Under the pieces are notes generated by a model that worked only from the letters and a program-made list of their open reading frames with translations, had not been told where the DNA came from and did not search any database. A DNA stretch of 13,322 nt from a virus (Duplodnaviria; Heunggongvirae; Uroviricota; Caudoviricetes), in the IMG/VR virus record IMGVR_UViG_2740892369_000029. One strand, 5' to 3'. A program made the position numbers and the translations under genes. Position 1 is the first letter of the stretch. The number at the start of each line of letters is the position of its first letter. Shown piece by piece: positions 5,818 through 7,234 of this stretch.

Positions 5818-6535
5818 GGCCGTGTCCACATTACGTGGGTAGGATCAATTTTCCTGATGACCCCATCGACATAGTATTTTTTCAAAGCAAGAATTGCCTT
5901 CTCGCTATGTATTCCTGATAGCTTGATCAGGATATCAAAGTCTCTTTCAGATATATTCCCCTTTGTCATGTGTCACTCCATGAATCAAATTTCATAGTAA
6001 TCAATCTTTCTTTGATCGACTTATAGATAATAAGATCAGAAATGATAAAAAAGTAACGCATATTTCTTCTCGTCATGTCTACTTATAAAATTCAAATGAA
6101 CTAACCTGAACTACTTACACTGGAATATCATTATATTGGAATAATTATAAAACTGAACAAAATGGTCAATGTAATCTGGTTAATTTATAAATATTTACAT
6201 TGCGTGATGATATTTAATTCCAGTGTTAAGTAATGTCACATGCCTATTATTGGTTACTACTTTGTAGGTGTTTTGGTTCGGCGTTAATATCATTGGTCAT
6301 AATCACCTGTGAAAGTTTATTCTTGAAATGTTATAGGTATATTACTTGCAATTAAAAATGAGAAATTTATTATTATTGTGTTTTGCAAATATAATAATTA
6401 AAAATTTATTATAAATTATGATTAGAATTGACAATATAAAAGAATGATAAAACTCAATATGAAAATAATTATCATCTGGTTTGATACTTTTGCTGTTGAT
6501 TACAGGAATAAAGTGTCAGAATAATATTGTTATTG

Positions 6536-6566
6536 GGTAAAAAAAGCCTCCACTATATGTGGAGGC
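6536..6566 (-). terminator. Possible Rho-independent terminator (hairpin GCCTCCAC-TATA-GTGGAGGC followed by a U-run on the minus strand)
   Basis: Plus strand reads GGGTAAAAAAAGCCTCCACTATATGTGGAGGC: an 8-bp perfect stem preceded by an A-run, giving a T-run after the stem on the minus strand. No ORF of 60 aa or more lies immediately upstream on the minus strand, so the transcript it would terminate is unknown. Confidence 0.3.
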
Positions 6567-7234
6567 AAACCCTTAGATAGTTCTATTGAGGCAAGTATGT
6601 TATAAATCTGCCTTATCTTTTATAGCATATAAAGATATGTATGCTATATTTTTTTTGAAGAAATTTTTCCAGAAATTACAGTAATACAAGAAATATTAAC
6701 TGGTGTGATTTTTGGATGTTTAATAAGTACAGTGTACTTATATTTTTGTAATAAAGATGAACGCGTCCTTTAGATAAACTGAAAAATATTAAGCATGTCT
6801 CATGTGGTTTTCTGAATCAAAACTCTTTTCAGTCTTTGATTTTTTGTTAAAAACAGGTTTATTGCAAGGGTGTTGTTGTGAAATGTGTTTTGGTGTCGTT
6901 GTGATTTTATGGTGATAATGTGAATTTTTATCCTTTCAAGATGGCTCCCTGGACGTTAAATACAGTGGAAATTTATATTAAGATATAAATATAACTATTG
7001 CGTTATTTAAATTATTGTCTATTACAGCTCCAGTTAATAGAGCCTGAAGTAATTTCTTAGTATTTCATCATAAGCGTTTATCTATCGTCTCTTTCTAAAT
7101 TAACCGGTCGTATTACAAGGTGCTGAATCTGATTAAGGAATGATACTTAGGGGATTATGGCTGACTTAATAATTAGATAACTGATAAATGACTATCAGGG
7201 GGATATCGTTAAGTCAGCCTTTAAAATCAAGCGA

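Follow-up and report, generated by a model that had tools for sequence, protein, structure and literature searches.

A gene-free AT-rich stretch in Escherichia coli O26-type genomes as the probable orphaned control region of a papB–araC operon in an argW island

The regulatory regions of pap-family fimbriae (papI–papB, fae, sfa and daa) consist of AT-rich non-coding DNA directly upstream of a PF03333 (PapB-family) regulator gene that heads the adhesin genes, and they are targets of H-NS (PMC4546395). The small RNA (sRNA) PapR acts on papI and is thus a precedent for sRNA action on a pap regulator (PMC4546395), while the island- or prophage-encoded sRNAs Esr41, AgvB, AsxR, IsrG and the Pas sRNAs are known from pathogenic E. 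coli and Salmonella (bioRxiv 10.64898/2026.05.13.724894). The argW–dsdCXA island, finally, is a variable argW-associated region of E. coli (PMC7545054). Here, we analysed a 1.4-kb AT-rich stretch at positions 5848–7234 of a DNA window of 13,322 nt, which is filed as a virus of the Caudoviricetes (IMG/VR record IMGVR_UViG_2740892369_000029). We favour, with some reserve, the reading that positions 5970–7234 are the orphaned 5′ control region of a papB–araC operon in an argW adhesin island, consisting mostly of filler and holding two conserved modules, one of which includes a candidate transcript of about 76 nt. The stretch shares with the pap-family regions its AT-richness, its lack of genes and its position directly upstream of a PF03333 regulator heading adhesin genes. 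It differs from them in being about three times longer (1.27 kb versus about 0.4 kb), in lacking both a divergent papI-like gene and a pair of GATC sites 102 bp apart, and in having an AraC-family gene after the regulator where the pap family has a pilin gene. By analogy, the stretch would work like the AT-rich pap-family adhesin control regions, but it does not belong to the Pap switch class.

The window comes from the chromosome of an E. coli strain of O26:H11 type, and positions 5848–7234 are 100% identical to strain FWSEC0001 and many further O26 genomes. At ≥95% identity, the stretch was found in 242 of 5,426 complete E. coli genomes (at ≥99% in 240), in 245 places altogether, with a median of one copy per genome; it is single-copy nearly everywhere and always chromosomal. 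In non-O26 strains the same integrase gene (int) lies directly beside the tRNA-Arg gene argW and yfdC, so that the stretch is the first cargo DNA of an argW-integrated island. The integration site is shared with the known argW island region (KplE1/CPS-53 prophage site), whereas neither the cargo described below nor its truncated form was found described in the literature examined on this region. The original prediction, made from the letters of the window alone, had placed a very AT-rich stretch with no open reading frame (ORF) of 60 aa or more between an IS3-family element and the 3′ end of the integrase gene. All of this was borne out: the stretch lies between the element at 4615–5847 and the integrase stop at 7235, no ORF of at least 60 aa is present, and G+C amounts to 28.2% in 5970–7234 compared to 46.7% in the remainder of the window, with a minimum of 24% around 6150–6600. 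The E. coli genome has a G+C content of about 50%. The missing long ORFs are predicted by base composition, as the longest open frame has 57 codons against 70 ± 16 in dinucleotide shuffles.

In one respect the earlier picture was wrong. Positions 5848–5969, counted there as spacer, encode the first 40 codons of a PapB/FocB-family gene: read from 5969 to 5848, they match PF03333 with E = 1.2e-10 and 41.7 bits (cut-off 29.4) over profile positions 19–57 of 91. The fragment has a good GGAG Shine-Dalgarno sequence, its frame continues into the end of the insertion sequence (IS), and it is annotated in RefSeq as a 51-aa product, the sole annotated feature under the stretch in every record listed. 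The C-terminal part, which carries the ...SYFS... motif, is encoded neither left of the IS nor elsewhere in the window. Of the 238 complete E. coli genomes that have the stretch in full, 237 show the papB-like gene broken off after codon 40 at the IS3-family element, and one has it intact. The element adjoins the fragment in all fetched loci but one, in which an IS66-family insertion lies between them.

Intact alleles, comprising one complete genome and several metagenome or draft contigs, show what the stretch once belonged to. The complete 76-aa form of the papB-like gene occurs only in five of them (L097, L115, L116, L128 and L130), and in L097, L115 and L116 it matches PF03333 over positions 19–87 of 91 (E = 6e-18). 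L097 is a metagenome contig, found via a PapB alignment search of metagenomes, in which the gene is likewise complete with 76 aa. The complete genome, that of the canine isolate Eco_23-2667 (L115), carries argW, int, a gene-free stretch of 1267 bp, the papB-like gene, an AraC-family gene of 282 aa, a convergent gene for a 1311-aa SPATE autotransporter (Peptidase_S6) and a chaperone-usher fimbrial cluster that includes another PapB gene; it is 98.7% identical to the window across int, stretch and papB fragment. The more diverged alleles L116 and L130 keep the gene order of L115, and the succession int, gene-free stretch, papB (76–81 aa), araC (282 aa), SPATE gene is found in L097, L115, L116 and L130. 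The stretch measures about 1.1–1.27 kb in every intact allele. Since it is gene-free in alleles whose flanking genes are intact, it was never a gene in this island family. In the window, the cargo consists of HsdR-N, hypothetical and helicase genes instead of adhesin genes. We thus propose that 5970–7234 was the intergenic DNA that controlled, from its 5′ side, an operon of two regulator genes (papB-like followed by araC-like) in an island at argW, whose original cargo would have been the SPATE autotransporter and the chaperone-usher fimbriae. With papB cut at the IS3-family element and the adhesin cargo replaced, the stretch would have been orphaned and would control no intact regulator. H-NS may also bind and silence it, as with other AT-rich DNA of horizontal origin; an H-NS-silenced region, as suggested in the original prediction, is plausible from composition alone.

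The idea of a decayed gene, likewise raised in the original prediction, holds for the truncated papB-like gene at 5848–5969 and fails for 5970–7234, where the stretch is gene-free in the intact alleles and homology searches came back empty. The six frames of 5960–7240, joined as one pseudo-protein, gave no match at E up to 10 among 2013 word-sharing candidates from 5.8 billion proteins, in a search that requires shared 5-residue words and that very old remnants could escape. Pfam gave no match for any of the six frames of the stretch at E up to 10, and Rfam 15 gave none at gathering thresholds anywhere in the window. No similar DNA was found in phages, nor in plasmids except for one 1.4-Mb record of chromosomal appearance, and across the 5,426 E. 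coli genomes only this island and a 120-bp integrase flank were similar. Eighty loci with related integrases from other genera likewise showed no similarity to the stretch; in these loci the ORF-free DNA that follows int has a median length of 240 bp, so that 1.27 kb is unusually long for this integrase family. With the closest intact PapB-like genes (fae-like and DUF1120-type operons), alignment was confined to the coding part, and the upstream regions showed no DNA similarity. Long AT-rich gene-free gaps are nonetheless also found upstream of relatives of the papB–araC module, e.g. in a Salmonella assembly (L118; 551 bp, 27.8% G+C) and in Providencia rettgeri (L124; 1757 bp, 28.9%), and fae-like operons led by PapB-like genes have such upstream regions as well; nothing in them is alignable with the stretch. 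As an aside on record labels, the island contigs L006 and L116 are filed under Aliicoccus persicus and Clostridiales metagenome-assembled genomes, and the 1.4-Mb PLSDB ‘plasmid’ CP061244.1 contains the locus from the chromosome; errors of binning or labelling are the probable cause.

A functionless AT-rich relic, kept since nothing deleted it, would explain much of this. The stretch has no ORF, no protein homology and no Rfam family, its cognate papB gene is dead in the window, and it contains indels of up to 55 bp. It is also missing, save 120 bp, from a related argW island (R1-type). Among 17 close alleles, every sub-segment of the stretch shows 35–50 variable sites per kb compared to 9.9 in int, where the variants are nine synonymous, two non-synonymous and one nonsense. 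A general claim of neutral evolution from this contrast was dropped, as int forms a recombination block with a conservation of its own: synonymous divergence (dS) from L115 to L116 is 0.008 in int, 0.20–0.25 in papB and araC and 1.0 in the SPATE gene, which makes int a poor yardstick. The comparison of L115 with L130 (dS of 0.28 in int, 0.67 in araC and 1.1 in papB) speaks against a mere relic. In 60-nt windows, most of the stretch is only 15–55% identical between these alleles and unalignable, but two peaks stand out, 5966–6115 with 88–97% and about 6536–6625 with 90–92% identity, and they are conserved where the synonymous sites of papB and araC are near saturation. Together with the retained length of about 1.1–1.27 kb, these two blocks leave the relic explanation improbable for the stretch as a whole. 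The outcome that would have refuted the original prediction, variable junk in related islands, does apply to most of the stretch; it does not apply to 5966–6115 and about 6536–6625. An error-ridden allele, L131, was left out of the comparisons. The features at the core of our reading are as follows.

5848–5969, minus strand: truncated papB-like regulator (Pfam PF03333), codons 1–40 of 76, ending at the conserved R39–K40.
5970–6115, minus strand: conserved papB leader or proximal control region, 88–97% identical between L115 and L130 in 60-nt windows, with weaker conservation on to about 6217.
5966–6076, minus strand: 36-codon upstream ORF MTRRNMRYFFIISDLIIYKSIKERLITMKFDSWSDT, whose TGA stop overlaps the papB ATG (ATGA).
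6539–6627, minus strand: conserved element with a TGnTATAAA box (6627–6619), a 5′ hairpin (6613–6589), a linker ending in UCUAAGGGUUU and an intrinsic terminator (stem-loop 6566–6546, U-run 6545–6539).

The first module is the papB leader of about 150 nt. In the Salmonella assembly allele L128, the DNA from −120 to −1 of papB shows only 0–2 differences per 15 nt, whereas the spacer between papB and araC differs at 41% of sites. The 36-codon ORF is open with the same stop/start overlap in L115, L116, L128 and L130, and would probably couple or gate papB translation. A small-protein locus, i.e. a functional peptide made from this ORF or another short one, was among the options of the original prediction. 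Besides the open frame and the ATGA overlap in all four diverged alleles, it can draw on the fact that the ten differences separating L115 from L128 all spare second codon positions and that gene callers predict the ORF in public data (as 31-aa and 55-aa products, P0024 and P0023). Compared to L130, however, most changes are non-synonymous and one is at a second codon position; with the majority of codon changes altering the peptide, conservation lies at the nucleotide level, and what is kept is more likely the act of translating the ORF, or the RNA itself, than the peptide. Moreover, no Shine-Dalgarno sequence is evident before the first ATG, no family or homologue exists beyond this island, and the more distant papB–araC module L118 lacks such an ORF. 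The other short ORFs fare no better: those of 40 aa (6233–6355), 26 aa (6444–6524) and 37 aa (6802–6915) carry start-codon or non-synonymous polymorphisms or lie in unalignable DNA, the 26-aa ORF having both a polymorphic start codon and non-synonymous variants. A functional peptide thus appears improbable. A type I toxin–antitoxin system or small peptides from the 40-, 37-, 26- and 29-aa ORFs were rejected on the same kinds of observation (no Shine-Dalgarno sequence, polymorphic starts, non-synonymous variants or unalignable DNA).

The second module is the element at 6539–6627. A hairpin with terminator geometry had been noticed at 6536–6566 in the original prediction, and it proved real: positions 6546–6566 fold with −15.8 kcal/mol (z = −5.4) and, together with a U7 tail, form an intrinsic terminator on the minus strand, with an 8-bp stem (six G-C pairs) and a 5-nt loop. 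A terminator scan returned this single site (0.4 expected). The terminator reads GCCUCCAC-loop-GUGGAGGC, followed by U6–U8 across alleles; its stem is invariant in all of them and its loop differs in L130. Upstream of it lie a 5′ hairpin with the arms AGGCAG ... CUUGCCU and a single-stranded linker of about 22 nt, whose terminal UCUAAGGGUUU is invariant. At 6627–6619, a TG(C/T)TATAAA box resembling an extended −10 element is kept in all alleles, although the sequence on its 5′ side has diverged. L115 and L130 share 90–92% identity in the element and 72–78% in shoulders reaching out to about 6715. Where alleles differ within the element, the change lies in a loop or leaves the pairing intact or longer: the first hairpin gains a G-C pair in L115 and L116 through an A-to-G change, and deletion of a U in L116 turns a G-U into a G-C pair. 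The two-hairpin fold is predicted alike in three alleles (z = −3.4 to −5.3). As to the small-RNA part of the original prediction, support is real, if indirect, and consists of this hairpin block, about 90% conserved amid unalignable flanks; for the small-protein part it consists of the 36-codon ORF that stays open in all diverged alleles.

From the −10-like box to the U-run, the block has the footprint expected of an independent transcript of about 76 nt, but this footprint would also fit a leader attenuator or an elaborate insulator. In the mechanism that we propose, this unit, which occupies about 90 nt of the minus strand midway along the stretch, would give rise to a short RNA of its own, about 76 nt long. 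That RNA would be either an sRNA encoded by the island or what a leader attenuator releases on premature termination, and the unit would in addition stop read-through from the integrase gene before the regulator genes; the unit is intact in the window. It is possible, if doubtful, that the unit at about 6614–6539 is a genuine, so far undescribed sRNA from the papB/araC-regulated circuit of the SPATE and fimbrial island, which outlived the loss of that circuit, remains intact in O26:H11, O111 and other lineages and perhaps acts in trans on transcripts of the core genome or of other virulence genes. The element resembles the island and prophage sRNAs named above in size, in its 5′ stem-loop, AU-rich single-stranded part and Rho-independent terminator, and in its location in horizontally acquired DNA near virulence regulators. 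It differs from them in being single-copy and without an Rfam match; the best sub-threshold match is Arrc14 with 31.3 bits against a gathering threshold of 99, driven by the terminator. As no similar DNA exists outside the island in the 5,426 E. coli genomes, the element is not a copy of one of those sRNAs. Attenuators and leader terminators offer a second likeness, as they too have a conserved sense-strand hairpin with a U-tract upstream of the regulated genes and here a further conserved hairpin precedes it. On the other hand, no alternative antiterminator pairing was found, and conservation is missing from the 420 nt that separate the terminator from the conserved papB leader, which would be unusual for a functional continuous leader.

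Alternatively, the conserved block might act in cis only, as an insulator in which the terminator and an accessory hairpin halt integrase read-through before papB–araC, with no separate RNA function. The terminator lies between int and papB on their strand; int transcripts could continue past the hairpin that immediately follows int, since it lacks a U-tract; and a comparable sense-strand terminator is found about 460 bp upstream of an unrelated PapB-like gene (L094, L107). An insulator is also in line with the duplex scan reported below, which found no target in trans. Yet some 30 nt suffice for a terminator, while the part conserved at about 90% spans about 85–90 nt and takes in the 5′ hairpin, the linker UCUAAGGGUUU and the TGnTATAAA box, and the 670 nt from int to the block have diverged beyond alignment. 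We therefore regard a purely insulating role as rather unlikely.

Several results weigh against the control-region reading or its two modules. Throughout the stretch, 6420–6660 included, variable sites per kb among the close alleles are four to five times as many as in int. The conservation argument hangs on one deeply diverged allele (L130) and one intermediate (L116), and a local recombination patch might conceivably lie behind the conservation. A hand count of the differences between L115 and L130 gave a ratio of non-synonymous to synonymous change (omega) of roughly 1 for the upstream-ORF peptide. All 19 predicted pairs of the element are invariant or changed on one side only, so that no covariation is available. 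No −35 hexamer is recognisable, and a consensus promoter scan made no call at the element. When 105 other loci were scanned with a covariance model derived from the alleles, no convincing homologue emerged; the best match (19.9 bits) was the terminator about 460 bp upstream of the unrelated PapB-like gene. A crude duplex scan of 16 translation-initiation regions of the island gave no outlier target (best z = −1.7). With regard to silencing, the high-affinity H-NS motif TCGATAAATT, allowing up to two mismatches, has 4 of its 24 window hits in the stretch, which is no meaningful enrichment.

The position upstream of a PapB-family gene also raises the possibility of a phase-variation switch for the adhesin regulators, either of the Pap type (Dam/Lrp/PapI) or an invertible one of the fim type, and distant relatives indeed have a 185-aa FimB-like recombinase gene after the araC-like gene, beside fimbrial genes. 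GATC, however, occurs only at 5925, 6014 and 6034, with spacings of 89, 20 and 109 bp rather than 102–103 bp, and no PapI/FaeA-like sequence was found in the six frames (Pfam at E up to 10; 5.8 billion proteins), which excludes a Pap-type Dam/Lrp switch. All 238 full-length copies in complete genomes are collinear and in a single piece, none of them inverted, and this uniform orientation excludes an invertible switch; in addition, the longest exact inverted repeat of 11 nt is at chance level, and the intact island has no small recombinase gene. Taken as a whole, a phase switch is thus very improbable. The relatives with recombinase genes (L121–L127, e.g. L124 5001–6403 and L126 5001–6403) merit a separate remark: behind their 282-aa AraC-like gene, and sharing 4 bp with it, comes a convergent gene for a 185-aa FimB/FimE-like recombinase, and these pairs lie beside fimbrial genes after gene-free gaps of up to 2.3 kb, as candidate invertible promoter switches.

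Taken as a control region, the stretch is nothing out of the ordinary: the decay of a genomic island has left a regulatory intergenic region orphaned. It offers one modest new lead, the conserved terminator-ended element of about 76 nt. For annotation, this means that the gap in O26-type enterohaemorrhagic E. coli genomes would be the stranded control region of an adhesin/SPATE island and neither a missed gene nor a sequencing oddity. The conserved 76-nt element is a possible sRNA or attenuator tied to PapB/AraC-type adhesin regulation; should the sRNA prove true, a major pathogen lineage would have one more island-encoded regulator, a result useful but not surprising to specialists. The remaining features within and around the stretch are listed below.

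4615–5847, plus strand: IS3-family insertion sequence with a frameshifted transposase (RefSeq: ‘IS3 family transposase, frameshifted’) and terminal inverted repeats TGATCTTACCCAC...GTGGGTAGGATCA; left boundary of the stretch.
6116–6535, no strand: AT-rich filler without detected constraint, 40–73% identical between L115 and L130, 49 variable sites per kb in the 17 close alleles; holds an 11-nt repeat and small non-conserved ORFs.
6621–6656, plus strand: terminator-like hairpin followed by T8 (−11.3 kcal/mol, z = −3.8), overlapping the box of the element.
6656–6715, minus strand: moderately conserved block upstream of the element, ATTTCTT...TTACTGTAATTTCTG.AA.A.TTTCTTCA, 72–78% identical between L115 and L130 with neighbours at ≤50%.
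6716–7114, no strand: AT-rich filler without detected constraint, 15–65% identical between L115 and L130, with a 55-bp indel relative to L116; includes the GT-rich patch.
7115–7234, minus strand: 3′ flank of the integrase gene with a long hairpin at 7219–7159 (−23.6 kcal/mol, z = −6.2) and no U-tract.
7235–8425, minus strand: P4-type tyrosine integrase, a pseudogene in the window (RefSeq: ‘tyrosine-type recombinase/integrase, internal stop’); right boundary of the stretch.

Judged from the allele comparisons, most of the stretch thus appears to be AT-rich filler without detectable sequence constraint, and two details singled out in the original prediction lie in it. The short direct repeat is present, with the 11-nt unit AAATTTATTAT at 6364–6414, but its length is at chance, as 62% of shuffles carry an equal or longer one, and its Tandem Repeats Finder score is just 35. 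The GT-rich patch is a real strand-asymmetric tract: G+T reaches 81% in 6869–6925, and the peak 57-nt window of the stretch (82%) is matched by 0.7% of shuffles. Several TGTGA-like motifs had been noted within it; TGTGA as such shows no enrichment, with 28 found in the window against 30 expected. The patch is also the most variable part among alleles, with 123 substitutions per kb relative to L116, and it is unalignable with L130. GT- or CA-rich low-complexity tracts occur upstream of unrelated PapB-like genes, too (L092 3100–3215; L118 5280–5350), at differing distances and orientations. The block at 6656–6715 is possibly a regulator or promoter site. A convergent RNA pair formed with the plus-strand terminator at 6621–6656 was considered and dropped: L116 has a stem mismatch and an interrupted T-run, the hairpin is absent in L130, and the length of the T-run varies among close alleles.

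At the left boundary, the IS-free alleles L095 and L096 lack window positions 4612–5850 and have papB truncated at the identical point. In these two independent read sets, ...CGTTG is joined straight to TTCCTG... (L095 about 4575–4590, reverse complement). Compared to them, the window segment ATC + IS + ATT (4612–5850) shows no target-site duplication, which points to papB having been truncated by an IS-linked deletion or to a later imprecise loss of the IS. At the other end of intact papB, a strong G+C-rich hairpin lies just past the stop codon, at about 12290–12320 in L115 (GTATTGTCGGGGACGACCCCGACAATAC) and at about 500–530 in the Salmonella allele L128 (ATATTGCCGGGACTTCTCCGGCAATAT), where both arms are changed and the hairpin is kept; it possibly serves as a terminator or attenuator in the papB–araC spacer.

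At the right boundary, the segment 7115–7234 belongs to the integrase module. It is the only part shared with the different argW island (R1-type) of 29 more genomes, at 89% identity over 120 bp, and both hairpin stems are kept there with changes confined to the internal loops; the segment is identical in L116 and has a weak match beside another P4-type integrase in L126. Codon 222 of the integrase gene (7760–7762, minus strand) is TAA in the window and TAC (Tyr) in the 15 of 15 other alleles that cover the site. With this in-frame stop, the integrase gene is a pseudogene, and the island is therefore probably fixed in place.

From left to right, the window carries genes for a 338-aa hypothetical protein and a 786-aa protein with an HsdR N-terminal domain, the IS3-family element, the AT-rich stretch, the P4-type integrase gene, and torI with early lambdoid prophage genes. 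The replacement cargo (window 481–4501; left flanks of L004 and L005) comprises the 786-aa HsdR-N protein, the 338-aa protein and a DEAD/DEAH helicase, and a sister island has BREX and DUF262 genes; this cargo in place of the adhesin genes looks like a defence island. PADLOC matches of the 786-aa protein were weak, both to methyltransferase models. Between int and torI, positions 8601–8615 hold a copy of the last 15 nt of the tRNA-Arg gene argW (CTGCAGGGGACACCA, minus strand), and there is no tRNA gene in the window, which implies that a torI-ended prophage lies in tandem between the true argW and the island.

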